A stretch of 64,000 nt of DNA from Octopus vulgaris. Taxonomy: Eukaryota. How positions within the stretch are numbered: the stretch's first letter is position 1; each line of letters opens with the position of its first letter. The DNA is taken from assembly GCA_951406725.2 (NCBI GenBank), contig OX597837.1:24118001-24182000 (forward strand), written 5' to 3'. Below the pieces are notes generated by a model. It was not told the origin of the DNA and searched no databases. It saw only the letters and a list, made by a program, of their open reading frames with translations. Positions 6,558 to 59,160 of the stretch are shown in pieces. A program made the translations under genes and the position numbers.

Positions 6558-6960
6558 AGGCGGCGAGCTGGCAGAAACGTTAGCACGCCGGGCGAAATGC
6601 GTAGCCGTATTTCGTCTGCCGTTACGTTCTGAGTTCAAATTCCGCCGAGGTCGACTTTGCCTTTCATCCTTTCGGGGGTCGATTAAATAAGTACCAGTTA
6701 TGCACTGGGGTCGATATAATCGACTTAATCTGTTTGTCTGTCCTTGTTTGTCCCCTCTGTGTTTAGCCCCTTGTGAGTAGTAAAGAAATGGGTATTTCGT
6801 CTGCTGTTACGTTCTGAGTTCAAATTCCGCCAAGGTCGACTTTGCCTTTCATCCTTTCGGGGTCGATTAAATAAGTACCAGTTATGCACTGGGGTCGATG
6901 TAATCGACTTAATCCGGTTGTCTGTCCTTGTTTGTCCCCTCTGTGTTTAGCCCCAAAGAA
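6558..6960 (+). mobile_element. tRNA-derived SINE family D, head plus two body units
   Basis: GGCGGCGAGCTGGCAGAAACGTTAGC head, GAGTTCAAATTCC B box, GTCGACTTTGCCTTTCATCCTTTCGGGGTCGAT core. The body is repeated. Confidence 0.85.
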
Positions 6961-7356: not shown

Positions 7357-8359
7357 AGTAAAGAAATAGGTATGTTATTGCGTGAACGAGCAGTGTGTGG
7401 GTATAATGTCGTATGGTGGAATGGCTGAACAGTAGAATGTGCCACTTTAAATTTACATCCTTTTCTCGAAAAAACTTTGTTTTCAGTTTTAAAAAATACA
7501 AATATAATAATAATAAATATCCAAATGGCTTTGTAGCCTCGAGTATTAAGGTTTATGTCGTCGGATTATGCGATTAACGGGAATTTTGTTGAAAGGGTAT
7601 TAGGAAGGTTTCTGAATCTACATAGCAAAATAGTTCAGCCCATGCACACGTCATCGCCGCCAGCACTGCTGTCCTTCACCCCTCTGTTCGTGTCCCCGCC
7701 CTGTTGTCTTTACTACCGCGATCACCCCCACCTCTCCCTACATCTGTTTTCTACTATCTCTGGCCTTGTTTCCTACCATCCTTTCCTTCGGGCATGCAAA
7801 TCCTGCACGAAGTATAAAACCTCAATGAAACAGAAGGTGTCAAGACAACTCACAAAAAAAAAAGACCAATTCTCTCCCCCTCTCCTTTCCCTTTTCAACA
7901 CACTGCAGGAAAAACATTCACCCAACACACAAAACACTCAACATAGCTAGAACCATTGCACTCCCACACAATGACTGACAATATCTGATGACACCTTACA
8001 ATAATTCATACAGTTGCGTTACGTCGTAGGATATACGTTAACCGCCCTTTCTAACTCGGCGGTGAACTGGAGACCAAAAAGAAAATTCCTAGCGTATTTC
8101 ACACGGAAATAAAATACAATGTTAAGTTAAAAATATAGAAAAGTTGTTTTTTTTAAAAAAGCTATTGCTTATTTTATTACTCTACTCTTTTACTTGTTTC
8201 AGTCATGTGTGTATGTGGATATATGTGTGTGTATGTGTGTATGTGTATGTGTGTGTATGTATATATTTTTTTGTGTATATGTGTATGTGTGGTCGTGTGT
8301 GTGTGTATATATACATGTGTGTGTGTATATGTATGTGCATGTATATGTGTATGTATATA

Positions 8360-11813
<3,454 letters not shown>

Positions 11814-14659: not shown

Positions 14660-15170
14660 CTTTGTGGGCAAAACTTCCTTTTGTACCCCACCCAAAAAAC
14701 ACCCCTTTTTAAAATTTTTTTTTTTTTCTACACAGACCTCCGGTTTTTTTTTTGGGTTTTTTTTTGGCTACGGAGAAAACAAATCTACAAAAAAACTGGC
14801 AAAAATCGGCATTTTGAAATTACCGCCCCCACCACACACACATACACGTACACACACACAATTCTTCATTTTAAAGATTTTTTTTTTTTCAAAATATGCG
14901 GAAAAATATGGAAATTATGATTCTGAAAAATTTTCCAAAATTTTTTTTGTTAGGTTTAGGGTTTTCGGGTTAGGGTTAGGGTTAGGGTTTTAGGGTTAGG
15001 GTTAGAGTTAAGGTTTTAGGGTTACGGTTTTGGGGGGAAAGGCGGGAAGTGAGGACCGAAATTTCAAAATGCCGATTTTTGGCAATTTTCCAGAATCTCT
15101 GTATCCGAAAACGGGGGGTTTTGACAAAAAGAAAAAAATATGGAGAAAATGGGGTTTGTGTTGTTAAAAA
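14660..15170. mobile_element. Non-autonomous DNA element with internal (TTAGGG)n
   Basis: Inverted 20-mers AAAATCGGCATTTTGAAATT (~14801) and AATTTCAAAATGCCGATTTT (~15060) bracket degenerate telomeric repeats at 14950-15030. Ends are approximate. Confidence 0.5.
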
Positions 15171-16275: not shown

Positions 16276-16560
16276 TGTTGTGTCTGGGGAGAGTCATTCT
16301 CTTTTAGTGCCTTATTATTTAACACACTCACCGGTAAAATTTCCACTTATTTCTTATTTTCCTATTTTTATTTTCTAAAATTTTCGTTGCGTGTTGCAAC
16401 CTTTTCAATAGTCTTGACAATAGAGTCAAGACAATTGAAAAGGTTGCAAGACGCAATGAAAATTTTAGGAAAATAAAAATAAGAAATAAGTGGAAATTTT
16501 ACCGATGAGTGTGTTAAATAATAAGGCACTAAAAGAGAATGACTCACCCCAGACACAACA
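16276..16560. mobile_element. Fold-back inverted repeat (~140-bp arms, 6-nt spacer), probable Penelope-like remnant
   Basis: 16276-16418 is approximately the reverse complement of 16425-16560. Confidence 0.7.
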
Positions 16561-16866: not shown

Positions 16867-17154
16867 CGACTTAACAAGTGTTGCAGACGAATGGCCATCA
16901 TCAAATGTGTTGAAATCAACACCGTTGGAGTTATTATAGTCGCTGAGCTGTGCACTGGGCTCTCTGTGTTTTTCTGTGGCTTCTGCCCCACTAACGCCGT
17001 ATCTTTCGCCACTGTCGAACACCGTACCCTTGTTTTCATAGACGAACATGGCCTCCGGTGTGTAGGGCGGCGCCGACAACCAGTTGCGTCTATATCCCAT
17101 TTCTTCTGGATCTTCCGGGATACAAAATTTCTGCCTGATGTGTCGCCTTGACCA
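16867..17154 (-). CDS. Mucin cytoplasmic-tail exon (WSRRHIRQKF...ATLVKS)
   Basis: Acceptor aatgttccag|TGG TCA AGG CGA in phase 0. Basic stop-transfer residues follow the TM helix. Ends at the donor TCG|gtaaga, or reads through to TAA at 16843-16845. Confidence 0.8.
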
Positions 17155-17369
17155 CTGGAACATTGAAGCGGGAACTCATTGGAATTTATTGCTCTTTGTT
17201 TGTTTGTTTTGTTTGTTGGATGATGGTTGGATGGTTGGAGAGAATTAGGTTATGGTAGACATGTTGGAAATGTCTGTGAGAGAAGGCAAGGCGTTGAAAA
17301 ATATGAAGAGCAAGAAACATGGCAAAACTGTAAATAGTGAGAGTTGGCACGTGAGGGAGAGAGACAGAA

Positions 17370-17438
<69 letters not shown>

Positions 17439-18172
17439 GAGAGAGAGAGAGAAAGAGCGGGGGTGAAAAAGAGATAGAAAAAGAGAATAGGAGAGGTAAG
17501 TTACACCTTTATTAGACATATTGAAATATCTTAGAGAAGAAATGAAATCAATAAGACGATGTAGAGCAGGAGAGAGAGAGAAATAGTGAGATAAGATTAT
17601 GTATATGTGTGAAAGAAGCTGGGAGAAATAAAATGGCAAAGATGCGGTATTCATTGGCCGCCATTGCTGGCAGGCCTTTCGTTGAAAAAAAAAAAACGAG
17701 AAAAATGATAGACTAATATATACAAGGTCACGTTTTAAATGAATACTGAGGAAATAAGAGAGATGAGGAACATGAATAGAAGGCAGAAGTGGACTGAAAG
17801 GTGATAAAGGGTAATGAGTTGGGTGAAATAATTGTCAAGAAAGAGTTAAAGAGGAAGTAAGGGAGCGAAGTAGATATCTTTAACAGTCACTGATTTTTTC
17901 CGTTCTTATAACGAACCATAAAATCCATAATGTCTTGAAATTGCAAATTTTGAAACGTTAGAATGTTGAGGTGGTATGAAGTCAACAATGGTAGTCCTAA
18001 ACGTGCAGCCTTGAGAGAGAACATCTTTGAAAACGATATTCTTTGTTATACACTTGTCCCTCTTCTAACTTATCCATTATTTCTATCATTATACCAGAGG
18101 TAAACGATCTTAAATATGGAACACAATTGAAGACATAATTTATTCATAATATCATTCTGCTACTGTACGATT

Positions 18173-18468
18173 GTGGAGGCACATGGCCAAGTGGTTAGAG
18201 CAGCGGACTCGCGGTCGAGGGATCGCGGGTTCGAATCTAAGACCGGGCGATGTGTGTGTTTATGAGCGAAACACCTAAGCTCCACGCGACTCCGGCAGAA
18301 GGTAATGGCGAAACTTCTGCTGACTCTTTCGCCACAACTTTCTCTCACTCTTTCCTCCTGCATCTTGCAGCTCACCTGCGACAGACTGGCGTCCCGTCCA
18401 GATGGGGAACCTATACGCCAAGGAAACCGGCCCTTATAAGTCAGGCATGGCTCGAGAAGGAACAAACA
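18173..18468 (+). mobile_element. SINE with family A head/body and tail 2
   Basis: tRNA head GTGGAGGCACATGGCCAAGTGG...GGTTCGAATC. TSD actgtacgatt/actgtacaatt. Confidence 0.8.
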
Positions 18469-18856
18469 ACTGTACAATTACGTTTGAAAATTTTAGTGGT
18501 TCCTTGTTTTCCTATCAAAACTAAATGGCTGCCATCGAAGTACAAAAGCTCCTCCCTTCACCACGAGCTACGGATTCTAAAAGAAAATATCAGTATTGTA
18601 TGTGTGTTTGATAGTTAATTCAAAATATTTTATTTATCAAAATATGTATTTATCAGTCATCTATTTATCTATCAGTCATTATGAATTATAAAACTGTTCA
18701 TATAATAGGTTATCTCTTTGATTTTGTTCCATACTTTAAGTGCTACATAAGTAGGCTGTAATACCCTATTATTATTCATAAGATTTGGAAATTGTCGAAC
18801 TGCTGGTAGCACAGCTAATTCCCTTCGAGCACTCAAAATAAAAAGGATTGTTAATA

Positions 18857-20024
18857 CAACACTGGGTCTCTTATCCGGCTTCCAGAAATCCGGAATTTTC
18901 AGAAGTTCAGGAATACTGTTCAATGTCGTACAATATACACTACTTTGTACCGAGTAAAGAGACTCTGTTTTTGATGTTGGTTAATTTGTATACGGTATGT
19001 TGTGGAGGCGCAATGGCCCAGTGGTTAGGGCAGCGGACTCGCGGTCATAGGATCGCGGTTTCGATTCTCAGACCGGGCGTTGTGAGTGTTTATTGAGCGA
19101 AAACACCTAAAAGCTCCACGAGGCTCCGGCAGGGAATGGTGGTGATCCCTGCTGTACTCTTTCACCACAACTTTCTCTCACTCTTACTTCCTGTTTCTGT
19201 TGTACCTGTACTTCAAAGGGCCGGCCTTGTCACTCTCTGTGTCACGCTGAATATCCCCGAGAACTACGTTAAGGGTACACGTGTCTGTGGAGTGTTCAGC
19301 CACTTACACGTTAATTTCACGAGCAGGCTGTTCCGTTGATTCGGATCAACCGGAACCCTCTTCGTCGTAACCGACGGAGTGCTTATGTTAAAAATAGTTT
19401 TAATCATCCTGAAACACGTGTCCCTAGATGCAGCCCGGGCGGCCGGGGGTGTTTGTCTCCCCTTCGTAAATGTATATAAGGACACAGGAAAAATGCGTCA
19501 AAGCCATCAGGAGGCGTCGATGCTTCCTAGGGCTAAACAGCGGTGGTGTACCCCCCTACTGTCACGTTCGTGTTAGATTGACAGTATACAACCATTCTAT
19601 CGCCCCACCACCGTACATGTCTCTATGAGAGATTTAGAAATTTAGTATTTCTAGTTTTAATGTACCTTCTATTAAGTTGATTGATAAATATTTACTTTAG
19701 GATTGTATTAGTTTGTACCGGTATCTGTTAAATAAAATAATGTTATTTTTCTTCATTTTGGTTTCGTGTTATAAACATTATACTGTTTGCGTGGTACATT
19801 ATGATATATTTTAAGAATTATAAAAGGATTAATGAATATCAAACAGATCCTGCTTTAGAAGTGTATTCATTTGAATCTGATTGATACAATTTTGTTCTTT
19901 ACTTTTCATAGTTTCTTTTGTATTTAAGTATATATTTCGGCTGTCTCCAGAAAATCGGAAAGTCCAGAAATCCGGGCCATTTCCGGCCCTAAGGTTACCG
20001 GATGGATAGCTGGTCCGGTACTGT
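18857..20024. mobile_element. pogo/Tigger-like non-autonomous DNA transposon containing a SINE
   Basis: Imperfect inverted ends (TACAACACTGGGTCTCTTATCCGG / ...GGTCCGGTACTGTA) with repeated TCCAGAAATCCGG. A related end occurs at 62130-62190. Confidence 0.55.
19002..19383 (+). mobile_element. SINE family A, full length
   Basis: A and B boxes present. Short TSD tatgtt. Confidence 0.9.
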
Positions 20025-20725
20025 ACTATATTTTTAAAATATGCTATAGGGTTTCACGAAATAAACCTCGATGAAAAGAGATTTCTATTGGCTTTATTTA
20101 TTTATTTATTTTTGTCAGAACTAAATCTGTAAGTGATGGTTGAGAGAGCGTAACGAATTTAGAACACCTTCTGCGCCAGCTACGTGAGACAAGTACAAAT
20201 CTTCAGTTTTTCTAAGCTACGGTCAGAAGTGACGGTGAGTGATGTGTGAGAAACAACAGCAACAACAAAATAAAAATGATAATAGAAAGGGGACCCTTTG
20301 GTACATCCAAATAATTCCGGATGAATGGGTGGTTTAAAAGTACAAGAGACAGAACGATTTAAAAGTAAGAGAGATAGAGATGGAGAGGGAGAGGAAAAGA
20401 GAGGGAGGTTTTAAAAGGGGTTCTTTGTTGAGGTTTAAGTGATCCTAATGTTGAATGAGTGACGAAGATAAACGAGGTGATTGGGTGAAAAACCAAGCAA
20501 GAGGAATGCAGGTGATGCTGAATATTAATAAATATGTGGAACAAAAATGTGTTGATAGTTGTGTAGTGATAGTTGTGGTGATAGTTGTGTAGTGGTGATA
20601 ACAGCAGTTGTTGTAGAAGTGACGGTTGTGATGGTGGGTGGTGGGTGGTAGTGAATGAACAAAGAGGATTACGGTAATTAATAGTTATGATAGTAATTAT
20701 TGCTGATAACAAATTTTTTTCTTAC

Positions 20726-20838
20726 CAAAACGCAAACCATGAAGATTATGAAAAACAAAACTACGCATCCACATACGATGATGGCGATACCCCAGTTTGG
20801 AAGAGGTTCAGTGGTTTGTGCAAGAGTAGCCACGGGAA
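20726..20838 (-). CDS. Mucin transmembrane exon (IPVATLAQTTEPLPNWGIAIIVCGCVVLFFIIFMVCVL)
   Basis: Reads ttttgtatttcag|TT CCC...GTT TTG|gtaaga. 113 nt, phase 1 to phase 0. Encodes a ~23-residue hydrophobic helix. Confidence 0.9.
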
Positions 20839-20852
20839 CTGAAATACAAAAC

Positions 20853-20905
<53 letters not shown>

Positions 20906-20920
20906 TGATGATAATAATAA

Positions 20921-21390
20921 TGCCTCCTCATTGACATGACTGTCCCAATCGATATAAACGTATCTGTCAAGACCTACCAAAAACTGAGCTAATATAAAGA
21001 TCTTGAAATAGAAATCAGCAAAATGTGGAACCTGAAGACTAAAACAATACCTGTTGTCATAGGTGCCCTTGGAATGATAGCGAAAGGGGCTGATTGCTAC
21101 CTAACTCAAATACCAGGAAACCCCAAAATGGCAGAAATTCAAAAGATAGTGCTCATGGGAACTGCTCATATCCTACGCAAAATACTCTCTATGTAATCCC
21201 AAGGTTTAAAACAAACTTTTTTTTAAAATTTATTTATCAGACATTCACTAGTACAACACCAAAAAAAAAAGCCGAAATATATGGCACACTAGGCATAACA
21301 ACAACGTGAACTTCCAACCTGTTGTCTCTTGAGGTCTCTGGGTGAGACTTGGAGCCAACTTGTACAGACATAAAGCAAAAGTCAAACATA

Positions 21391-21391
<1 letters not shown>
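20921..21391 (+). mobile_element. 5'-truncated R4/Dong-like non-LTR element (restriction-like endonuclease C-terminus plus 3'UTR) in (AAT)n
   Basis: Translates CLLIDMTVPIDINVSVKTYQKLS*YKDLEIEISKMWNLKTKTIPVVIGALG...GTAHILRKILSM*. (AAT)n on both sides. Confidence 0.8.
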
Positions 21392-21460
<69 letters not shown>

Positions 21461-21991
21461 TCGTTCGCTTATTGGCCACAAGGGCTAACAAAAATCAATT
21501 AAAACATAAAGGGACAAAACACAGGACGAAAGTTACAAAGGGTTTTGTCCGTTTGAAAAAAGTCTGTGTACAAAATCAGGATAACAACGAAATATAAGTA
21601 ACAATTAAAACTCCCAATTGGGGGAGGCGCTTTGAAAGGTTACTCGTGGAAAAACCCATAAAAGCCACGGGAGCCTGGTCAAAAGGGGTGGTAGAGAGCC
21701 CCTTTCTCCTTTTATATTTCCTTTTAATTTTTCACAGGTGTATCCTTATAATGATAATGACGATGGTGGTGGTGGTGGTGGTGGTGGTGGTAGTGGTCTC
21801 TTTATTAATTATGTTACTTGTCCTGTTTTCCATTTGTTTCTTTCGTTGTTTGCATATTGAAATCATTGTTTTCGTATTTCATGTTGTTTACTGTTGGTGA
21901 CGTCCTGTACTCATATATGCATATGTATATATATAGATATGTGTGTGTATGCATATATATATGTATTATTCATATCATTTATATATATATA

Positions 21992-22032
<41 letters not shown>

Positions 22033-22094
22033 ATGCATATATATATGTATTATTCATATCATTATATATATATATATATATGTGTATATATATA

Positions 22095-22161
<67 letters not shown>

Positions 22162-22371
22162 CGAAACGCGGAGTAGTTGAAACAGGGACAACTGAAGAAG
22201 GGGAATATTCTTTATGCTGTATGCCTCGTTTCTCTGTTTGTTTTTTTTTCGTTGTTCGAAAAAAAGTTCGTTTCTATGTTTTTGTTTTCGTTTCTCATTG
22301 TGCTCCACGTTTTTTTTATGTCCTGTACACATATATGCATGTATATGTTCATATATTTATATATTATTTAT

Positions 22372-22402
<31 letters not shown>

Positions 22403-22431
22403 CATATATATACATATACATATATACATAT

Positions 22432-22504
<73 letters not shown>

Positions 22505-22535
22505 CATATATATACATACATACATATATATACAT

Positions 22536-22578
<43 letters not shown>

Positions 22579-22580
22579 CA

Positions 22581-22616
<36 letters not shown>

Positions 22617-22625
22617 TACATATAT

Positions 22626-22666
<41 letters not shown>

Positions 22667-22783
22667 CATACATACATATACATACATACATGCATATATA
22701 TATATACATATATATACATACATATATATACATATATATATACTCACATACATATATACATATATATATATACACATACATAT

Positions 22784-22876
<93 letters not shown>

Positions 22877-22954
22877 GTTACTTATCCAAACAAACAGTAG
22901 TACAGGAGAAATAAATGAAGTAGAAAATACACAGAGAATATATGCTTCACTTAC

Positions 22955-23112
22955 TTGAATGATAGATGGAAGTTTTATTTAATTCAAAAGGACCCAAGTA
23001 ATAGGTCGGCTCCAACTGACTGTCAAAGAACTGGTTGACCATCGTGGAATTGATCTCGGTTCCCTTTGTAAGCACGAAAGAAGCTTCGTAGTAGACCACC
23101 ACGCTTCCTTGC
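22955..23112 (-). CDS. Mucin exon, SEA C-terminal part with (R)QG/SVVV cleavage motif
   Basis: Reads tctattccag|G CAA GGA AGC GTG GTG GTC...CAT TCA A|gtaagt. 158 nt, phase 2 to phase 1. Confidence 0.9.
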
Positions 23113-23210
23113 CTGGAATAGACAATGGAAAAAAACTGTAATGTCTTGCGATTGGAAGGATTAGGTGTATATATATACATAGACGCGAACACATGCATAC
23201 ACGCGCGTGT

Positions 23211-23262
<52 letters not shown>

Positions 23263-23446
23263 ATATAACTATGCTAAGACACTGCCTTGAATTGTTTATT
23301 TATGTATGCATGTATGTATGTATGTATGTATGTATGTATGTATGTATGTACCAGTCTTTACCATGTATGTATACATACATACATACGTACATAAATACAT
23401 ACATACATGCATATGTATACATGTGTGTATACATACATACATACAT

Positions 23447-23477
<31 letters not shown>

Positions 23478-23612
23478 AATACATACATACATGCATGCAT
23501 GCATATATATACACACACACATACATACACACATAATAATAATATTATTATTATCATTATTATTATTATTAATATTATTATCATTATTGTTATTATTATC
23601 ATTATTATCATT

Positions 23613-23654
<42 letters not shown>

Positions 23655-23806
23655 CATGTCACTGCTTGGAATCGAACTCGGAATCTTGGGGTTAGTAGCC
23701 CGCGCTCTTAACCACAGCCGAAACGTTGTGTTAACAACAAACAAGATGAGGACGATCGTTCACTTGGCTTCCACGTTAGAGCAAACTTTTACAGCTATGA
23801 ATCTAT

Positions 23807-24109
23807 GAAAACAATTGCAGTGTGGAAGGTGTTTGTAAGCCATTTAAGAAACACACAAAAAGCCGTTCGATTCACTTCAACATTTAAGTTTAATTTGTCA
23901 AAAGATGCAGCACGGATTTTTGTCAGTGAACAGGTTGCGGTCTGATAGTGACGAAAATATTTTGACAAATTAAACTTAAATGTTGAAGTGAATCGAACGG
24001 CTTTTGTGTGTTTCTTAAATGGCTTACAAACACCTTCCACGCTGCAATTGTTTTCGTTTCAGCACACGATCTCAGATCAAATCACTTGCTATGCAAGTAC
24101 ATCTCCGTA
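23807..24109. mobile_element. Fold-back element (~97-bp arms) with TSD, probable Penelope-like remnant
   Basis: 23807-23903 is the reverse complement of 23960-24055. aatctatgaa occurs at 23800-23809 and 24110-24119. Confidence 0.7.
23919..23969 (+). ncRNA. Minimal type I hammerhead-like ribozyme, G3-C8 core variant
   Basis: tttgtca-GTGAACA-g-gttgc/gtgac-GAAA-atat-TT-tgacaaa. Confidence 0.55.
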
Positions 24110-24307
24110 AATCTATGAATACAATTGGATGAAAGGTGAGGCCAACAATACTGATTTTCTCAATATACAATATTTGTGGAGAAGAGATGTTTATGATGTC
24201 CAATAATACAATGAGTTATAAGTTTCATAACACACCCACACACACACACATTAACAAACTCGTGCAGAATCACATTTTATCTTTAAAATACACGTATGTT
24301 TCTTTAC

Positions 24308-24372
24308 CTGAATGTCATACTTCCTATACGTACAAACACTGCGAAGGGGTTCTTCTTCCAAAGATCCGAAAG
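24308..24372 (-). CDS. Mucin exon, 65 nt, SEA middle (LSDLWKKNPFAVFVRIGSMTF+AG)
   Basis: Reads tgaatttctag|CTTTCG...TTCAG|gtaaag. Phase 0 in and phase 2 out, which bridges the flanking exons exactly. Confidence 0.85.
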
Positions 24373-24496
24373 CTAGAAATTCAACATACAAACAAGAAAT
24401 ACTTAAAGGGTTATACTTTAAAACAAAATAATAGGAAATCCACCACCGCCCGTCCCGTGAGCAAAATTTTGGTGACTATTCAGATATAAACCCACC

Positions 24497-24659
24497 TTAT
24501 TTACATTATTTACATTACTTACATTTGATGGATATTTGTCCTCGACTAGTTTGTTGTTAACACAACGTTTCGGCTGATATACCCTCCAGCCCTCTTCAGG
24601 TGTCTTGGGGAAATTTCGAACCTGGGTTCTCATTCCTAATGTATTCTTCGATGTTGTTG

Positions 24660-24696
<37 letters not shown>

Positions 24697-25110
24697 CATT
24701 ATTTTTATTATTATTATCATTATTATTATCATTATTATTATTACTATTATTATTATTATTATTATTATTATCATTATTATTATTATTATCATTATTATTA
24801 TCATTATTATTATTACTATTATTATTATTATTATTATTATTATCATTATTTTTATTATTATTATCATTATTATTATCATTATTATTATTACTATTATTAT
24901 TATTATTATTATTATTATATTATCATTATCATTATTATTGTTGTTCATGTCACTGCTTGGAATCGAACTCGGAATCTTGGGGTTAGTAGCCCGCGCTCTT
25001 AACCACAGCCGAAACGTTGTGTTAACAACAAACAAGATGAGGACGAATATCCGTCGAATGTAAATAATGTAAACAATGTACATAATTCCTCATCTCTTAA
25101 ATATAGAACT
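24497..25110 (-). mobile_element. Composite element: inverted tail copy, tRNA-like head, (AAT)n, hammerhead-containing tail
   Basis: Head 25007-24949 with B box GAGTTCGATTCC. Microsatellite 24940-24652. Hammerhead 24604-24559. The tail is repeated in inverted orientation at 25006-25085. Confidence 0.7.
24559..24604 (-). ncRNA. Minimal type I hammerhead ribozyme (Penelope type)
   Basis: gacac-CTGAAGA-g-ggctg/cagcc-GAAA-cg-TT-gtgtt. Palindromic AACGTT stem III. Confidence 0.7.
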
Positions 25111-25562
25111 ATAAAACCCACCTGTTGACAATTATATTTTTTTCGAAAATCCACGGGAGGTCTCTTCCCCTGGGAAAGATTAAGCAAAGCGCAAGAAATA
25201 CCATGCTGTAGGGGTATTCAAATCGTAACGAACCACCTGGTTAATTAATGCACAGTACCATTTACATCAATGTTGTAGTTTAGTGTGATTGCGTGCATAA
25301 CCATAAATTTGTGGAATTGATGGACTCGTTAGTTTCTCTCAACACAAGTGAATTCCGCCATACCACCCGAACCCCTCGTGGATTGGATTCTTATACATTT
25401 GCAGTTCGACCCCTGCTACTAATATTCCCCATCGCTTGCTTTTTAGAAAACATTATCATGCGTTGTTTATATACAGACGTTTTACTCTGCGAACAGTTGT
25501 TAATGTATGGCTGAGCGCAGGCTGACATATTTAGAGTAGCGAGCGAAAATAAAAAAAAGTTT

Positions 25563-25999
25563 GATCTTTTCGGTTTGAACGGCAGTTTTACTAGCGGTGT
25601 CATATGAAATTGTCACCCATAATTATAACCCTTGTATCGATCTATTTCAATCTGTTTTAGGGTTAGGGTCAGTTAGGGTTAAGGTTAGGGTTAGGGTTAG
25701 GGTTAGGGGAAGGGTATCTTTTTTTATTCAGAAATGTAAATAAACCCAATCTGTTTCCTAAACGAGGGACATATTCATACGGCACAGAATGTTTTCAACT
25801 CAATGGACGTCATTGATTGGTTGAAATTGCAGAAATTGAAGAAGAAAAAGAACAAATATCTTACAAACTATAGAATTTTCTCAATAAAGCCAAGAGAAAA
25901 AGATGTTTTATAAACACATTCTACCAGTATACGAAGTTTAAAAGTGTTTAGTTACGTGGAAATTATTTTTAAAAACTGCCGGTCAAACCGAAAAGATTC
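25563..25999. mobile_element. Mutator-like MITE with internal (TTAGGG)n
   Basis: ~27-bp TIRs GATCTTTTCGGTTTGAACGGCAGTTTT / AAAACTGCCGGTCAAACCGAAAAGAT. 9-bp TSD aaaaagttt. A related partial copy lies at 42150-42510. Confidence 0.7.
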
Positions 26000-26124
26000 A
26001 AAAAGTTTTAATGAAATGAAATGAAATTACATATATCATAAGAAGAAAAGTTACGAGCCTTAAACCTTTTGTTACCATATTTCTTCTGAAATACATTAAC
26101 TTTGTTTCAGTTAATTTTCAAAAT

Positions 26125-26280
26125 GTGTGGTAAGTAGCTTGCTTACCAACCACATGGTTCCAGGTTCAGTCCCACTACGTGGCACCTTAGGCAAGTGTCT
26201 TCTACTATAGCCTCAGACCGACCAAAGCCTTGCGAGTGGATTTGGTAGATGGAAACTGGAAGAAGCCCGTCGTATATATG

Positions 26281-26319
<39 letters not shown>

Positions 26320-26516
26320 TTGTGTGTCCGTGTTTGTCCCCCCAACATCGCTTGACAACCGATGCTGGTGTGTTTACGTCCCCGTAACTTAGCGTTTCGG
26401 CAAAAGAGACCGATAGGATAAGTACTAGGCTTAGACAGAATAAGCTCAGGGGTCGATTTGCTCGACTAAAGGCGCTGCTCCAGCATGGCCGCAGTCAAAA
26501 TGACTGAAACAAGTAA

Positions 26517-26520
<4 letters not shown>
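26125..26520 (+). mobile_element. SINE family C with (GAAA)n tail
   Basis: Matches 1785-2207. Confidence 0.85.
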
Positions 26521-26584
<64 letters not shown>

Positions 26585-27529
26585 AAAAAGAAAGAAGTTA
26601 GCGAAATATTTTCGTCATTATAGAATTAAAATGAAATTTTGAAGAAAGGCTTTAAATTTAAATCATTTTGTAACAGGAAGTTTGTATCATAGGACCAGCG
26701 GCAGTCTGAGGCGGGTAGGTATCAAAAGGGTTAATGACTAATCTCGATAAAAGGGTAAGGGAAAGAAGCCTTATATTTAACCCTTTAGCGTTTAAACCGG
26801 TTATATATAGCCCATGTGTTCTACCTGTTTTCTGTTTAATAAGTACTAGTTGAGCACTGGGGTCGAGGTAGTCGACTTAACCCCTGCTCCGATATTAGTG
26901 GCCTTGTACCAAAATTTGAAACCAATATTATGCCCATCAAAGGCCGCAAGCTGGCCGAATCGTTAGCAGCCAGCAAAATCCGGCCTCTCACGTTCACCCT
27001 GCAGTGTCTTTCAAAAAAATTAATAGCCTCATTATCGAAATCTCGAAGCTACGAGATAATGCATGAGTAATTCCAAACAACGTGAATAAATAAGTGTTAC
27101 AGTTGAATAAGCAAGCATTACATTTGACAGAATAAGCTAAGTGATGAAGGGCTAAATTGAATAAAACTAAATAGGAGTGTGAGACTGATCTTTGCTGATG
27201 ATCAATAGGTTTATGGTGACAACTTCGGGTGTATTTCGGTGTCATCAGACCGCACATGACTGGTTCAATATGGCAGCCAACTCTCTTCAAAGATCGTCTT
27301 TAAAATGAGTTAACATGAACGAACGAAGGGGCAGAAAACTATGTCACTTTCCGAACTGCTTAACGTGCCATTTTGAAAAATAAGTAAGTTTTGGTTCTAT
27401 ATATTTAAGTTAATATACTCCACAATGAAAGCAGGTTGACTAGACCCGAAGGTTATTTGTTCATTAACTACTTTCCGTTTACACAAGCAAAACTGAGACC
27501 GTTGCTATTTAATTCTTTCAACGATAGAC

Positions 27530-28300
27530 AAAAGGCCTAAATTTTGTAAGGGAAGAGCTAATCAAATACATCCATCACCGCACTCAATCGGTACTTATTT
27601 TATCGACTCTGAAATGGTGAAAGGCAAAGTCGACCTCGTCGACATTTGAACTCAGAGCGTAAAGCCGGATTCAAACATTGTGTTCAGGGTGCTAACGACT
27701 CTGCCAGCCCGGTGCCTCACCGCTGCAACTTAATAACAGTAATAATGATGCCAGCAATGACAGCGGCAAAAGTTTAAAGTACAAAATGTTGAGAATCTGT
27801 AATAACATGAAAATGGGTGATCTCGGTGGACTAAGATTATTTTAATAATTCATTCAATGTGATGGCATAATATTGGCTTCAAATTTTGGCATAAGGCCAG
27901 ACATTTTGGGGCAGCGAATAAGTCAATGACATCGAGCCTAGTACTCAACTGGTACTTATTTCATCGACCCTGAAAGGATGAAAGGCAAAGATGCCCTCGG
28001 CAGTATTTGAACTCAGAACGTAAATGCAGACGAAATGCCACTAAGCATTTTGCCCGGCGTGCTAATGATTCTGCCAGTTCGCCGCCTTTGATGGGAGTAA
28101 TATTGGTTTCAAATTTTGGTACAAGGCCAGAAATTTCGGGACAGGAGTTAAGCCGATTACATCGACCCCAGTACTCAACTGGTACTTATTTTTTCGACCC
28201 CGAAAGGATAAAAGATAGTGTTGATCATAGTATAAAGACAGACGAAATGCCGCTAAACATTTTGCCCGACGTACTAACGATTCTGCGCGCTCACCGTCTT
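27530..28300 (-). mobile_element. Three diverged family D-related SINE copies
   Basis: Reverse-complement GGTACTTATTT..CGAC..GAAA..GATGAAAGGCAAAG cores. Confidence 0.7.
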
Positions 28301-28632
28301 GAGGGACATGATATTAATGAGACAAACAAGCAATATGACAAACATGGAGGCAGATAGATAAATAGAGAGAGAGAGAAATAGACTGAATGGCAGGCAGAAA
28401 ATTGGAAAAGAAATGGAAAAAAAAATAAAATAAGAGACTGGTAGACAGAAACTGATAGAGACGAAATTGATGGCAAGAGAAATTTATCTGTTATCTGGTA
28501 GGCGGACAGAGACAAGACAGACAAACAAAGAGACAGTTAGGCTGATGGAGAGACAGACCAAGAGAAAGAAACAGCAATGGCAGACTGGTAGGGAGACAGA
28601 GAAAGCTAGGCGGATAAATAAAGATTACCAAC

Positions 28633-31600
28633 CAATGTATTTAGTTGTTTCTGCAACTCGAAATATTCTGTAGAATTCGTGTCTGCAAGTTCTTTCGACC
28701 AAACGGCACCTTTTATTATAGTAAATCTTCCATTAATCGTCAGTGGTCCTCCTTGTATTTCTGCTTCAGGAGTGCTTTTCCATGGAATTTCTGTAGAGAA
28801 ACTACTACTTGTAGTAGCATCATTATTTGTAGTAGTAGGAGTAGTAGTAGAAGTAGTAGCAGTAGCAACCTTTTCAGTAGTAGTGGCTGTTGTAGTTGCT
28901 ACTGTTGTTGTTGTAGTTGCTGTTGTTGTTGTTGTTGTCGCTGCAGAAGTGCTTGCTTCACTAGTGTCTATTGTACTACGTTCAGTGGAACCCAGTGTGG
29001 ATGAGGGAGTAATCGGTGTGCTTCCTGTTTCTGTATCATTTATGTTGTGGGGCTTTGACTTGGTTGACAAAATGTGCGTAGTGCTGCTTGTGGCCGTTGT
29101 CAAACCTTCAGAACTTGTCTCGGTCACCGTTTCATTATCTGTCGTAGATGATGTAGGAAGCTGGGACCGCGATGTTGTAGGTTCGGTTGTAGAGGGAGTG
29201 TTTGTAGATTCAACCGTAGGCGAGGTTGTTGGAGATTCGGTTGTGGGTGGGGTTGTTGGAAGTTCGGTTGCAGGAAAGGTTATCGGCGGTTCGGTTGTGG
29301 GCGAGGTGGTCGACGGTTCGGTTGCAGGGAGAGTTGTTGAATGTTCGGTTGTTAGCGGAGTTGTTGGAGGTTCGGTTGTGGGCGGGGTCGTCTGAGGTTC
29401 GGTTGCAGGAAAGGTTGTTGGAGGTTCGGTTGTGGGCGGGGTCGTCGGAGGTTCGGTTGTGGGCAGGGTCGTTAGAGGTTCGGTTGCAGGAAGGGTTGTT
29501 GGAGATTCAGTTGTGGGCGGAGTTGTTGGAGGTTCGGTTGTGGGAGGGGTCGTTGGAGGTTGGGTTGCAGGAAAGGTTGTTAGAGGTTCGGTTGTGGGCG
29601 GAGTTGAGGGTTCGGTTGTAGATGGGGTTGGTGGAGGTTCGGTTGTGGGAAGAGTTGTTGGAGGCTCAGTTGTGGACGGGGTTGCTGAAGGTTCGGTTGT
29701 GGACGGGATTGCTGGGGGTTCGGTTATGAGTGAGGTTGTTGGGAGTTCGGTTGTGGGCGGAGTTGTAGGTTCGGTTGTGGGAAGGATTGTTGTAGCTTCG
29801 GACATGAGCGGGGTTATTGAAGGCTCAGTTGTGGCTGGGGTTGTAGATTCGGTTGTGGATGGGATTGTTGGAAGTTCGATTATGGGCGAGGTTGCTGGAG
29901 GTTCGGTTGTGGGCGAGGTTGTTGGAGGTTCGGTTGTGGGTGGGGTTGTTGGAGGTTCATTTGTGAGCAGAGTGGTTGCGGTCTGAGTTATTACTGAATC
30001 TGTTGAAGGTACGGTTGTGTTCGAAGTCGCTGAAGATTCACTTGTACCCGGGGTGGTTGAAGACTCAAATATTACAGGGAAGACTGAAGTTTCTGTTGTT
30101 GCTTCGTTTGTGGACGATGACCTGGATGTAATTGTAACGGGTGGAGATTGGTGGCTGATCGGGGTGATTGTAGATGGCTCAGATGTGGTTGAAATGTATG
30201 AAGGCTCGTATGTGGTTGAGTTAGTAGGAAATTCCGGTGTGATCGAGGCGGATGCAGACTCGGATGTAGCTGAGCTGGCTACAGCAGTTTGTGAGCTCAA
30301 AGGTACCTGAACAGTTGAAGAAAAACTTGAAAGTAATGTGTCCGATGTAGCTTGAGATAACGTTGATGATTCATTTACCGTTAGACCGACTGATTCGCCT
30401 GTTGATGCTACAGTGGCACTCTGAGTTGTTATAAATGACTCACCAGTGTCCCGAGTGGCTGTTGAAAAATTTGTTATGTCTAGGTTGAGTGTTGAGGTTT
30501 CAGTAATGCTCTGTGTAGCTGCTGAGGCATCAACGGTGCTCTGGTTGACTGTCGAGAAATCAAATGTGTTTTGGGGGAGAGTTGAGGATTCTGGTGAGCC
30601 TTCGGTTACTTTCGAGAACTCAGTTGTACCTTTTGTTTCTGTTGCAGTCTCAGTTGTATCTTGAAATGTTTTTGAAGACTCAAATGTGAAGTCAGTTGCT
30701 TGTGTAATAGGCGTTTCCTCTAAGAACTGAGTCGTTGTAGCCTGGGAAGTTGAAAAGGATGTAGTTTCTAAGTCGGTTGAAAATAACCCGAATGTGTGTG
30801 CTGCGGGAGTAGAGGGTTCATCTGTACTAGGAATGACTGTGGACGACTCAGACGTAGCCTGTACTGGTGTAGTAATTTCATTTGTGAATGATTCAGTTAT
30901 ATACTGAGACGACGATGATGATGAAGATGTTGATGATGGTGTTGATGATGACGACAACGATGACAATTCCCCATTGAAAAGAGTGGACTCAGGTGCTCTT
31001 GAAGTAGATGTAGGTTCTTCACTTGTAGACTGTGTATTTGTAAACTGCTCGACTGTTGACTGGATGGAGTGAACTGGTAATGTAACATTATGTGATTCAG
31101 TAGTTGACTGAAGGTCACTAGTTGGCCCCACTGACGGAACGTCTGTAGGCTGCTCAGTGCTAGACTGAGCAGCTGTAGTTTCCCCAACCGTAGTCAGCTC
31201 AACAGTAGCTGTTCCAGCTGCAGTCAAGTCAACTGTAGTTGGTTCAATTGTAGTCGGCTCATGTGTTGACTCAACTGTAGTCAGCTCAACTGTAGTCGGT
31301 TCAACTGTAGTCGGCTCAACTGTAGTCGGCTCAACTGTAGTCGGCTCAACTGTAGTCAGCTCAACTGTAGTCAGATCAACTGTAGTCGGCTCATTTGTTG
31401 TTGTCTCAACTGTAGTCAGCTCAACTGTTGTCCCAGTTATAGTTGCCTCAACTGTGCCTATTCGAGCAGTAGTCGGCTCAACTGTAGTTTTCTCCACTGT
31501 AGATGTCGGAGTTGTAGTTGCTTCAGCTGTGATTCTCCGAGCTGTAGTCGGCTCAACGGTAGCCGGTTCGACTGTGGTCGGCTCAACTGTAGTTTGCTCA

Positions 31601-34028
31601 ACTGTAGTCGGTTGAACTGTAGTTAGGTCAACTGTAGTCTGTTCAAGTGAAGTCGGCTCAACTGTAGTTGATTCAACTTTTATCAGGTCAATTGTTGTTG
31701 TCTCAGGTGTAGTCGTCTCAACTGTACGCGGTTCAGTTGTCTCAGTTGTAGTTTTTTCGACTGTGTCTATCCGAGATGTAGTCGGTTTAACTCTAGTTGA
31801 CTGAACTGTAGTCGACTCAACTGTAGTTAGCTCAACTGTAGTCGGCTCAACTGTAGTCAGCTCAACCGTAGTTGTCCTAGCTGTAGTCGGCTCACCTGTA
31901 GTTAGCTCAATTATAGTCGGCTCAACTGTAGTTAGCTCAACTGTAGTCGGCTCAACTGTAGTTGTCCTAGATGTAGTCGGCTCAACTGTAGTTATCCTAG
32001 CTGTAGTCGGCTTACCTGTAGTTAGCTCAACTGTAGTCGGCTCAACTGTAGTTGTCCTAGCTGTAGTCGGCTCAACTGTAGTTAGCTCATTTATAGTCGG
32101 CTCAACTGTAGTCAGCTCAGCTGTAGTCGACTCAACTGTAGTCGGCTTATTTGTTGTTATCCTAGTTGTTGTGGGCTCAACTGTTGTTCCAGCAGTGGTT
32201 GCCTCAACTGTGCTTGTTTGAGCTGTAGTTGGCACATCCGTTGTCGACTCAACTGTAGTTGTCCCAGTTGTAGTTGACTGAACTGTAGTCGGCTCAGTTG
32301 TTGTGGCCTCAAGTGTAGACGTCTCAACTGGAGTTGTTCTCGCCGTAGTTGCTTCGGTAGTACTTCTCTGAGTCATAGCCGGCTCAACTGTTGTGGTCTC
32401 CGCTGTAGTCAGCCTGGCTGTAGTTGTCGCCGATGTAGTCGGCTCAAGTGTAGTCGCTTCAGTTGTGGTTGTGTCAGCTATAACTGTTTCAGCTCCAGGC
32501 AGTTTGTTTGTGGTCAACGTAGCTGTAGTTGAGCTAGCTGTAGGTAGTTCAAACGTGTCCGTCCGTGTTGTTGTCGGTTTAACTGTAGTTGTCTCAGTTG
32601 TAAACTGAGAAGGGGTTGTCAGTTCAGTTGGTGACTGGGAAGCTGTATGCTGATTAGTTGTAACTGGAATGACAGAAGCCGCTTTGCTCTCAGAGTGAGG
32701 GACTATAATATCAGATGTTATATGCTGATTGGTTGTGTATTGCTTATCTGCAGACGAAATAGTTGTAAATGATTCGGAGACTGACTGAGTGGCTGTAGAC
32801 TGAGTGTGTGTAGATTGAGTAGTTACAGATGAACTCATTGTAGACTGAGTCTCTGTAGAAGGCTCAGCAGAAGAACGAGTGACTGTTGACTTAGAGTCAG
32901 TACTCTGAGTAATCGTAGATTGTGTAGTTGTAGACTTTGGCACTAGAGTTTGAGAGTCTGTGGATTTGGTGGTCACGGACTGGGCAGCCGAAAATTGCGT
33001 GGTCGTTGACTGAGTTGTCGCAGCCTGGGTAGCTGCAGCGGCATTAGCTGTGGCCTGAGCAACTGTCGACTGAACTACCGTAGTCGTAGGAACTATAGAT
33101 GAATTAGGTTTAGTGCTAAAATCTAAGGAAACATCATTTGGTTTATTCGTTGGCAATTTTGTATTTGTTGTTGGATGAGTCCCTGAGAAAGTTGTTGATA
33201 ATGATGGTGGTATGGCTGATGTTTCCGTTTCAGCGACAAGATTTGCGTTATTGAGAATGGCTGCCTCTTTTGTTGGAACCCTTTTGGAAGTTGTCGGAAT
33301 CACCCGTGAAATCATTGTTGTTTTTGATGCTATCGTCTGCGGCACTGAAGTTATCTGCGGGTTGATCGCTGTCGTCTGGTATTCAGCATAGCCCACTAAC
33401 GAATCACTCTCTTTTAGATTCAATTTCACTGTTTCTGGAGAGACACCAAACGAATTATCATTGTCTTCTAAATAAGTTTTCAATGAAAATTCTTGCTGTG
33501 AATCATCATTCGTTTGGTTATTTTGCTTCTTTTCTTCATGCAACGATTCACTGCGAACTGTGGGGTTCATTGTAGCTACAAAATGTTCTGCTCCCTGCAT
33601 AATAACTGGAGTATTTACTTCCAAATGTGATTTGTCTGAAGTAACATTTTTCACAATTGTCGCTTCGTGATCAGTGGATGTAAAGATTCTCGAATCGTTC
33701 TTAACTGGAGCCGCTATTTTCAATGCTTGCCGTGCTTCGTCTACAACATTTGCCGAAGTAATTTCCAGCAGAGGATGTGCAATAGTTGCAAGCGACAACG
33801 AACTTGGCGTCGTTACAAACCGATGTACATCGTTAGGTTTAACAGTCGTTTGACTAAGAGAAGTAGCTGTATGAAAGATATTCGAGACGAAACTTAAATG
33901 CTTCTTTTCATCTAAACCTGGTTCAGTCGAACTAAAAGAATCCGGAAATTTTGAAAATGGCAACTCTTCGCCTTGATAAAACTGATTGGTTGGTGAAGTA
34001 TAGTTTCCAGTAAAATCTGCTCGGGACT
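28633..34028 (-). CDS. Large mucin (PTS) exon of a transmembrane SEA-domain mucin, ending in the first part of the SEA domain
   Basis: Lies within the 1825-aa ORF 28606-34083. Thr/Ser/Pro/Glu-rich with TTVEP and PTTEPPTT repeats. Acceptor ttttttccttgtcttacag|AG (phase 1) at 34028. Ends ...RFTIIKGAVWSKELADTNSTEYFELQKQLNTL|gttggt (phase 0), which resembles a SEA N-terminus. Confidence 0.9.
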
Positions 34029-34840: not shown

Positions 34841-35217
34841 ATTACAGCCTTGAATGGGGTACTCCATGCTGCTGCAAGCTAGACAGAAAGGCAGAAATAA
34901 AGAACGGAAAAAGATCGACCAAGCAGTGGTACTTCGTTTATCGACCCTCGGAAGGAGGAAAGGCAAAGCTGACCTGGACAGGATTTGAACGCATAACATC
35001 AAGAATCCGAACTGATCATGGTTACAGAATTACAGCTTTTAATGGGGTATTCCATGCTGCTGCAATCTAGACAGAAAGACAGAAATAAAGAACGGAAAAA
35101 GCTCGACCAAGCAGTGGTACTTTGTTTATCGACCCTCGGAAGGAGGAAAGGCAAAGCTGACCTGGACGGGATTTGAACGCATAACACCAAGAATCCGAAC
35201 TGATCATGGTTACAGAT
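34841..35217. repeat. Tandem duplication, 2 x ~187 bp, containing a diverged SINE core
   Basis: ATTACAGC...GATCATGGTTACAGA is repeated starting at 34841 and 35028. Confidence 0.9.
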
Positions 35218-49449: not shown

Positions 49450-50905
49450 GGGACCTGAAGAACGCAGCTGGCTATATGATAGCTGACACCCAAGGAATTC
49501 TCGATCGCTAGAAGTCCCATTTCGACCACTCACACACTCCAGACGATCTCCTCCAAAACACCACACAGCTCCCCATCCGCCATTGGATTCCCTGCCGCCC
49601 TTGTCTTATGAGTTCAACAAGGCATTCGAGCGTATGAAGCCGGGTAAAGCTTCGGGACCAGACAACATCCCGTTTGAGTTTTTCCCGCACGGAGGTCCTA
49701 AGCTGAGAAATCATCTGACGCTCCTTATCCTCAAGACCTGAGAAAGCAAGACCCTCCCGAACGACTTCCTCGATGCAACTATCATCACCATCTACAAGAA
49801 GGGAGACCGTGAGGATTGCAACAACTATCGGGGCATCTCACTCCTGAGTATTGCAAGCAAGAACTTCGCCCGTATCCTACTCAATTACCTCCTCATCCTT
49901 GCAGAAGACGTCCTCCCTGAGTCCCAGGCACAATCGACATGATTTTTTATGCCCGCCAACTTCAGAAGTGTCAAGAACACCAACAGCCTACAATGTTCAT
50001 CTTCTGGGATCTAAAGAAAGCTTTTAACAAGGTCACCCGTCCTGCAATGTGGGCATCCTTGCTCGGTTTGGATATACGGAGGATTTCACTACCCTGGTCC
50101 ACTCCTTTCACGACGGCATAGTGGGTAGGGTATGCCATCAAAATGCTCTCACATACCCGTTTCTCATTACGGAGGGTCTTAAGCAAGGATGCGTCCTAGC
50201 ATCAACCTGTTTCTCTTTGTACAGAGCCGCCATATTCAACGAAATCCCACTAGACTCGCCTTCCATCAACATGCGCTACCGCTTGGATGGCGGACTCGCA
50301 CATCTCGGCGCAAAGACGAGGACCTCAGCCATCTCAGTCCGTGAGATGCAGTATGCCGACGACAATGCCACCCCGAGCCGAACCGTAGATGACCTACAAA
50401 GGACGGCTGATCTTTATAATGCGGCTTGTGAACGCTTCGGAATACAGGCAAACATATTAAAGGCCAAGACCCTGATCCAACCTGCACCAGGCCAGAACAA
50501 TCCACGAACATTAGCATCGATGGCAAATCCCCAGAAGTTGAACACTTCTCATACATTGAGAGTATTCTTTCGAAGACCCCCCACATGTGAAAAGGACTTA
50601 GAGAACCGGATCAGGGCGGCCCACTCCGCCTTCGATAGACTGAGCCAATGTGTATTCTTCAATCACGCGCTGACCATCCAGACAAAGATCATCGTCTTCG
50701 TGCTATTGTCCTGTAAACTCTTCTTTACGCTTGTGAGAATTGGACGCTGTACCGTCGTGACTTCACGCGCTTTGAATGCTTCCAGCAATCCAAGCTACGA
50801 CAGATCCTCAATATTCGATGAGAAGATTATATTACCAATAATGAAGTTCTTTGCCGCGCCTCACTACCAATCGTCAAAGCCACCATTCTTCGCCATCGTC
50901 TGTAC
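49450..50905 (+). mobile_element. Decayed RTE-clade LINE (reverse transcriptase)
   Basis: GKASGPDNIP, YKKGDREDCNNYRGISLLS, FWDLKKAF, GLKQGCVLA, QYADD. Frameshifts and stops. Confidence 0.9.
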
Positions 50906-51063
50906 GAATTCTGCCCACGACTCTTTCACTACAGCCTTGAACTTCAAAGTCACATTCGGCTCTAACATCTGCCGAGGAGACTTGATAGAAACTGACAAAC
51001 CCAACGCTCGGATACGAGTTGGAGCCGAGAACGACATGTATGTGTGTGTATATATATATGATT

Positions 51064-51423
51064 GCACTCCGTCGCTTATAACGACGAGGGTTCCGATCAA
51101 CGGAACAGCCTGCTCGTGAAATTAACGTGCAAGAGGCTGAGGACTCCACAGACACGTGTACCCTTAACGTAGTTCTCGGGGATATTCAGCGTGACACAGA
51201 ATGTGACAAGGCTGTACCTTTGAATTACAGGCCCAACAGAAACAGGAAGTAAAAGTGAGAGAAAGTTGTGGTGAAAGAGTACAACAGGGTTCGCCACCAT
51301 CCCCTGCCGGAGCCTCGTGGGGATTTAGGCGTTTTCGCTCAATAAACATTCACAAACGCCCAGTCTGGGAATCGAAACTGCGATCCTATAACCGCGAGTC
51401 CGCTGCCCTAACCACTGGGCCAT
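51064..51423 (-). mobile_element. SINE family A
   Basis: Reverse copy of 19002-19383. Confidence 0.85.
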
Positions 51424-58560: not shown

Positions 58561-59160
58561 AGGCGGCGAGCTGGCAGAAACGTTAGCACGCCGGGCGAAA
58601 TGCGTAGCCGTATTTCGTCTGCCGTTACGTTCTGAGTTCAAATTCCGCCGAGGTCGACTTTGCCTTTATTCCTTTCGGGGTCGATAAATTAAGTACCAGT
58701 TACGCACTGGGGTCGATGTAATCGACTTAATCCGTTTGCCTGTCCTTGTTTGTCCTCCCTGTGTTTAGCCCCTTGTGAGTAGTAAAGAAATAGGTATTTC
58801 GTCTGCCGTTACGTTCTGAGTTCAAAATCCGCCGAGGTCGACTTTGCCTATCATCCTTTCGGGGTCGATTAGATAAGCACCAGTTACGCACTAGGGTCTA
58901 TATAATCGACTTAATCCGTGTGTCTGTCCTTGTTTATCCCCTCTGTGTTTAGCCTCTTGTGGGTAGTAAAGAAATAGGTATTTCGTCTGCCACTGCGTTC
59001 TGAGTTCAAATTCCGCCGAGGTCGACTTTGCCTTTCATCCTTTCGGGGTCGATAAATTAAGTACCAGTTACGCACTGGGGTCGATATAATCGACTTAATC
59101 CCTTTGTCTGTCCTTGTTTGTCCTCTCTATGCTTAGCCCCTTGTGGGCAATAAAGAAATA
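58561..59160 (+). mobile_element. SINE family D trimer (one head plus three 184-bp body units)
   Basis: GTATTTCGTCTGCC starts at 58610, 58794 and 58978. Confidence 0.9.

Follow-up and report, generated by a model that had tools for sequence, protein, structure and literature searches.

A candidate octopus membrane mucin with SEA intron positions shared by vertebrate MUC16-type genes

A gene on the minus strand of the octopus window (the whole stretch of DNA that was analysed, 64,000 nt of Octopus vulgaris) likely encodes a SEA-type membrane mucin, though a distant one, and not an orthologue of MUC1. Its five predicted exons would cover the last 2,000 residues, up to the C-terminal end, of a mucin that crosses the membrane once, apparently an undescribed invertebrate member of this known class. 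The predicted introns within its SEA domain lie at the positions found in MUC16-type repeats of vertebrate genomic DNA. The exons, and the tandem repeats inside the largest of them, are as follows.

28633..34028, minus strand: large exon with the PTS region and the SEA start, 5,396 nt, phase 1 in and 0 out, ending YFELQKQLNTL
31185..32334, minus strand: 15-nt tandem repeat, about 78 copies of a TTVEP-type unit, inside the PTS exon
29219..29965, minus strand: 27-nt tandem repeat, 28 copies of a Pro/Thr-rich 9-residue unit, inside the PTS exon
24308..24372, minus strand: 65-nt SEA exon, phase 0 to 2, with a split Arg codon before QGSVVV
22955..23112, minus strand: 158-nt SEA exon, phase 2 to 1, with GSVVV (predicted self-cleavage site) and an LGPFEL motif
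20726..20838, minus strand: linker and TM exon, 113 nt, phase 1 to 0, LPNWGIAIIV
16867..17154, minus strand: cytoplasmic tail exon, 288 nt, 96 codons, five Tyr

Joined through AG acceptors and GT donors throughout, these exons give a stop-free frame of 2,007 codons under the predicted splicing, with phases of 0, 2, 1 and 0 across the four junctions and a possible further 0 at the end of the tail exon. At the level of sequence the gene is real, its five exons being joined by prediction. Much of the structure had been proposed from the letters of the DNA: a sequence-only reading described a PTS exon starting in phase 1 and ending YFELQKQLNTL in phase 0, a 65-nt exon leaving in phase 2 through the split Arg codon of FR/QGSVVV, a SEA exon leaving in phase 1 and a TM exon (LPNWGIAIIV) leaving in phase 0. 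We recovered all four with the frame kept, the first at 34028-28633 with AG and GT ends, and the second at 24372-24308, where it scored highest among 24 possible phase 0-to-2 exons in the intron span (33.8 bits; runner-up 28.6). The tail exon described there was also present, but its phase 0 end did not hold in the same way: the exon stops either at a GTAAGA donor in phase 0 or, after 7 more codons, at a TAA at 16845-16843. This last donor may go unused, and no convincing candidate for an exon downstream of the tail exon was found in the window. Of 24 sequencing runs listed, 20 contain part of the tail exon, with no RNA run among those listed as containing it; these runs were not used as evidence.

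The first donor (GTTGGT) is a weak site, and another donor 4 nt further on (GTAATC) was rejected because it causes a frameshift. If the weak donor were skipped, the PTS exon would continue for 8 codons to a stop (28606-28632, minus strand), and this read-through would yield a secreted, SEA-truncated form. A secreted isoform of MUC1 exists, and the read-through form of the octopus gene would be much like it. In the 30 kb upstream (34029-64000), nothing stood out convincingly as a signal-peptide exon; the N-terminus is missing from the model, and extra domains may therefore lie further upstream.

The large exon opens with about 300 low-complexity N-terminal residues, followed by about 1,460 residues of PTS sequence and then by the first strand and helix of the SEA domain. 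Over residues 300-1760 the PTS region is Cys-free and made up of 56% P+T+S, and with its two tandem arrays it provides the long PTS-rich region expected of SEA-type membrane mucins. A SEA domain beside one TM helix and a tail, also expected of this class, is found as well.

Against a profile built from SEA repeats of shark and lamprey, the joined SEA domain scored 34.2 bits (best of 1,000 shuffles: 6.3), in an alignment that runs continuously across both internal junctions. On single exons, Pfam SEA reached 16.2 bits (E 0.012, at the 3' end of the large exon), under the cut-off of 26.4; the six frames of the window hold one SEA match. Searched alone against 1.84 billion proteins, the 158-nt exon gave four matches at E up to 0.001, three of which are SEA-rich mucins of sawfish, bamboo shark and lamprey; the fourth, P0002, a bacterial repeat protein, was rejected as chance. 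Best matches overall are shark and lamprey MUC16-like proteins, and no vertebrate SEA domain compared exceeds 28% identity to the octopus domain. A wider search yielded 21 SEA proteins among 8,000 scored candidates, 20 named to vertebrates and one without organism, with no MUC1 and no named invertebrate among them; multi-SEA proteins may have crowded out others here, and the search profiles were built from mucins. Protein relatives were found neither for the tail (0 of 49 candidates) nor for the SEA start (0 of 6), and in metagenome contigs the tail gave 0 of 361. In the PDB, single exons gave two chance matches and none, the C-half profile gave none, and an AlphaFold model of a 52-residue SEA half (pLDDT 75.9, pTM 0.43) had no Foldseek match, while the SEA clusters at 0.82-0.86 in the ESM Atlas are leads only. 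We also built a tree from 71 of 174 SEA domains (kept if at least 105 residues long and below 70% identity), without MUC1 or an outgroup. The octopus domain sat there beside GS-type domains (support 58/63) on a branch of 3.5 changes per site; given this long branch, the weak support and the composition of the set, the tree was not used for orthology.

Five loci were fetched with a reptile MUC16 alignment, and four of them are MUC16-type genomic repeats. L001 was rejected as a source of introns, being intronless and frameshifted; its positions 1-1946 are a copy of a MUC16-type 3' part in a contig collection, either a transcript or a processed copy. The exons in the other four measure 143 nt (phase 1 to 0), 68 nt (0 to 2, split Arg), 173 nt (2 to 1) and 39 nt (1 to 1). 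The 65-nt octopus exon has its counterpart in the 68-nt exon of L002-L005, and the 158-nt exon in the 173-nt exon of L002, L003 and L005. In L003, the one locus mapped, the phase 0 junction falls at profile position 42, the phase 2 junction with its split Arg at 65 and the phase 1 junction at 122; in the octopus gene the first two likewise lie at 42 and 65, and the third reaches 122 if three residues are counted beyond the last one aligned. The octopus gene has predicted SEA introns in phases 0, 2 and 1 at the fixed MUC16 positions. These are not four independent tests, since L002, L004 and L005 are near-identical and the four loci represent one gene family. Protein models bear the same marks: among 24 vertebrate proteins, some from one species, 15 finish in a TM segment and nine are truncated gene models, seven of which stop or lose homology at the same SEA junction positions (three end in Arg at 65, one departs after 65, two read Val after 42 and one ends at 121-122); the remaining two end further on.

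The intron pattern is not specific to MUC1. Its positions are common to the MUC16-type SEA repeats in genomic DNA, and it is therefore no pointer to MUC1. Of the deep conservation suggested by the sequence-only reading, the intron positions stand, matching MUC16-type DNA, but the part that pointed to MUC1 falls away because the same pattern occurs in those repeats. That reading had also allowed that a pattern common to all SEA genes would be uninformative, and we find it in at least one other mucin family, the MUC16-type. The shared introns are, judging by sequence, those of an ancient SEA exon module. In PDB chains of TMPRSS11 an Arg occupies the split position, 22 residues past the helix end, a spacing that suits a 68-nt exon; the TMPRSS11 SEA exon is 68 nt long, and the 0/2/1 pattern is probably also present in these proteases. 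The available portions of PMC4948705, PMC10829539, PMC3912027, PMC7359498 and PMC8234110 contain no exon data.

The fourth exon encodes a clear TM helix (best 19-residue hydropathy 3.37) and ends 26 residues after the L of LPNW. The turtle model P0016 loses homology exactly 26 residues after LPxW, at the octopus TM exon end, a match drawn from this one gene model. In this part of the protein, identity to P0013 is 9/21. A likeness of the tail to MUC16-like tails seen by eye was rejected: it scored -2.3 bits, and of 1,000 shuffles run 600 were reported, 563 of which scored equal or higher.

We consider it somewhat more probable than the alternatives taken together that the octopus gene encodes a distant membrane mucin whose SEA exon module was inherited, as its SEA-TM cassette probably was too. 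An ancient whole SEA-TM cassette is plausible, and its SEA and TM exons would have travelled together since before the protostome/deuterostome split. What counts against such continuity across animals is that our protein and metagenome searches contained no invertebrate relative. A wider proposal, possible but on balance doubtful, is that one membrane-mucin gene in the last common bilaterian ancestor (perhaps cnidarian too) gave rise to both MUC1 and MUC16, with a cleavable Cys-free SEA domain, the TM exon and four intron positions kept in this invertebrate.

Independent assembly would account for the same gene differently, and we regard it as unlikely though far from negligible: an ancient SEA exon module would have been shuffled beside a generic TM exon while a PTS tract grew in the first SEA exon, so that only the SEA module would be homologous to vertebrate mucins. 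The first SEA exon of L002-L004 starts in phase 1 and carries a short Pro/Thr linker, and a fused PTS-SEA exon would therefore need repeat expansion only. Likewise, the Arg and the 22-residue spacing of TMPRSS11, together with its exon sizes, suggest a domain-wide pattern, and the octopus and MUC16-like tails are unrelated. PTS-SEA-TM layouts occur in fungi too, as in yeast Msb2, according to the available part of a preprint (bioRxiv 10.64898/2026.05.06.723240). It is the TM exon that argues against a fresh assembly, with its LPxW[GA]I start, a similar SEA-to-TM distance, a phase-0 boundary 26 residues on and the identity to P0013; moreover, the best matches are mucins and not proteases or agrin, albeit with profiles built from mucins.

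That the gene is a true MUC1 orthologue kept in an invertebrate is very improbable, even if one can easily see what suggests it. The protein has a single Cys-free SEA domain with FRxGSVVV and no EGF domains, its PTS region is fused to the SEA start, and its TM exon directly follows the SEA exon. In MUC1 the exons of this region measure 56, 137, 122 and 150 nt, and their phase series and number agree with the octopus gene. The MUC1 helix quoted by the sequence-only reading is indeed the one in the PDB (YYQELQRDISEM), and the Leu at the end of the first octopus exon is aligned with the final Met of this helix. GSVVV and PxWGI, taken there as MUC1-like, are both present but are not specific to MUC1: GSVVV occurs in 5 of 173 MUC16-like domains, and is thus not diagnostic, and PxWGI in 2 of 14 TM segments of MUC16-like proteins. 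Nor is the SEA domain closer to MUC1 than to other SEA families. Over 39 positions of the N-half, compared by eye, it shares 9 identities with MUC1, 13 with the membrane-near SEA domain of whale-shark P0007 and 7 with TMPRSS11D. With no MUC1 among the sequence matches either, MUC1 orthology is unsupported. We saw in the tail none of the motifs that we take to characterise the MUC1 tail. The published view, in the available text of PMC9564314, is that MUC1 appears first in mammals with a SEA domain from perlecan, and a chicken Muc1 candidate was left unresolved in the accessible part of PMC1552070. MUC1 had been described to us as a vertebrate innovation, which the portions available of PMC9578598 and PMC9564314 do state, but which is challenged by the anemone mucin1-like proteins of PMC9080433, as excerpted. 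Equally remote is a wrong gene model or a pseudogene, with the phase match built in by the reader: the first donor is weak, the first exon missing and the last uncertain, but the 5.4-kb exon is open, four junctions keep the frame, the SEA alignment runs across them, and they land on positions fixed independently by vertebrate DNA.

If the octopus gene is a distant membrane mucin, its product can be pictured by analogy. The PTS region, from its composition and by comparison with MUC1 (PMC9564314, available text), would be densely O-glycosylated and form a rod in the glycocalyx. The SEA domain, which contains the motif, would undergo self-cleavage at the Gly-Ser bond of GSVVV during folding, and its halves would stay non-covalently joined, as in MUC1. 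Force or proteases could then shed the outer part, leaving in the membrane a TM subunit whose Tyr-containing tail may signal. A signal peptide and a role in some tissue would likewise be expected of such a mucin.

The window is AT-rich, with many microsatellites and short interspersed repeats, a landscape typical of Octopus; together with the long branch to the vertebrate domains, it fits an octopus-like invertebrate. Directly downstream of the last exon lies an inverted repeat (16291-16545) with arms of about 120 nt that match at about 90%; it resembles a small non-autonomous DNA transposon, and the earliest AATAAA beyond the stop falls within it. The intron preceding the TM exon carries, opposite to the gene, a degenerate fragment with one stop (20924-21199, plus strand); we take it to resemble the C-terminal endonuclease end of a non-LTR retroelement. 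A reverse transcriptase remnant lies at 50028-51119 (plus strand; Pfam RVT_1 E 1e-4, under cut-off). The introns flanking the 65-nt exon contain a near-identical block of about 100 nt (23655-23755 and 24945-25045), each copy by a trinucleotide tract. Head-to-tail arrays of 184-188-nt units occur at 6607-6954, 34841-35216 and 58610-59160, the 184-nt unit being part of an interspersed repeat with many copies in the window. There are also a 3.5-kb (TA)n array (8342-11812) and TTAGGG-like runs (14949-15035 and 25657-25715). We found no Rfam or tRNA matches and recognised no neighbouring host gene in the window.

Trees cannot settle the origin of these mucins, the SEA sequences having diverged too far. 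Intron positions change slowly, and three match MUC16-type DNA, so the origin of MUC1 and MUC16 becomes testable through gene structures across animals. If there was one ancestral gene, MUC1 would be a fast-evolving survivor rather than a mosaic that arose in mammals from parts of MUC5B and perlecan. The octopus gene also adds a candidate mucin for the glycocalyx of a soft-bodied invertebrate. What is gained has its limits, since anemones have already been reported to possess this architecture and most classical SEA domains may share the intron pattern. We found no paper describing a SEA mucin from a cephalopod or another mollusc, or the intron positions of SEA domains, a weak negative, as most subscription journals lie outside the coverage.

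Among the closest known systems are the 'mucin1-like' proteins of sea anemones and coral (Haridi 2022, PMC9080433, as far as its available text goes), which share an invertebrate PTS-SEA-TM architecture, preceded in the cnidarian proteins by a signal peptide (SP-PTS-SEA-TM), and were called MUC1-like from domain layout and BLAST. The anemone proteins measure 448-454 aa, with hamster MUC1 as the listed match, so they are some 450 aa long against more than 2,000 in the octopus protein. TMPRSS11D/E, IMPG1/2, agrin, perlecan and ADGRF1 match the same profiles weakly, and TMPRSS11 has the Arg and its spacing, but all differ in architecture and topology. GSxxV, a general autoproteolytic motif in the available part of PMC9478142, likens the octopus domain to IMPG SEA-2 and, in that of PMC4398486, to placozoan perlecan.

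MUC1 itself (PDB 2ACM, 6BSB) resembles the octopus protein in its PTS region, single SEA, TM and tail, in the lack of EGF domains and in the GSVVV site; it differs in its repeat units and was not retrieved by sequence search. MUC16 and mucin-16-like proteins of lamprey, sharks, rays and reptiles (XP_051893943.1, XP_061407377.1; PDB 7SA9, 1IVZ) give the best sequence matches and share the three SEA intron positions with their phases, the LGP[YF]xL motif, the LPxW TM start, GS-type membrane-near SEA domains and, it would seem, the TM exon end. Lamprey P0004, P0006 and P0019, named 'mucin-2-like' or unnamed, are multi-SEA mucins of this type, two with a TM segment, and would place MUC16 at the base of vertebrates. 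MUC16 has many SEA domains where the octopus window has one, although the 5' end could hide more; the octopus domain has no Cys where all 173 MUC16-like domains have at least two; the octopus gene goes without a separate small linker exon after SEA; and its tail is longer and unrelated. The tandem SEA repeats, the conserved Cys pair and the short conserved tail of MUC16 are each absent from the gene as modelled, and a SEA domain without those cysteines, together with the unrelated tail, means that the octopus protein is not MUC16. It combines traits like those of MUC1 (a single Cys-free SEA, followed at once by the TM exon) and others like those of MUC16 (LGPFEL and the best scores), a mixture that an outgroup to both MUC1 and MUC16 might show.
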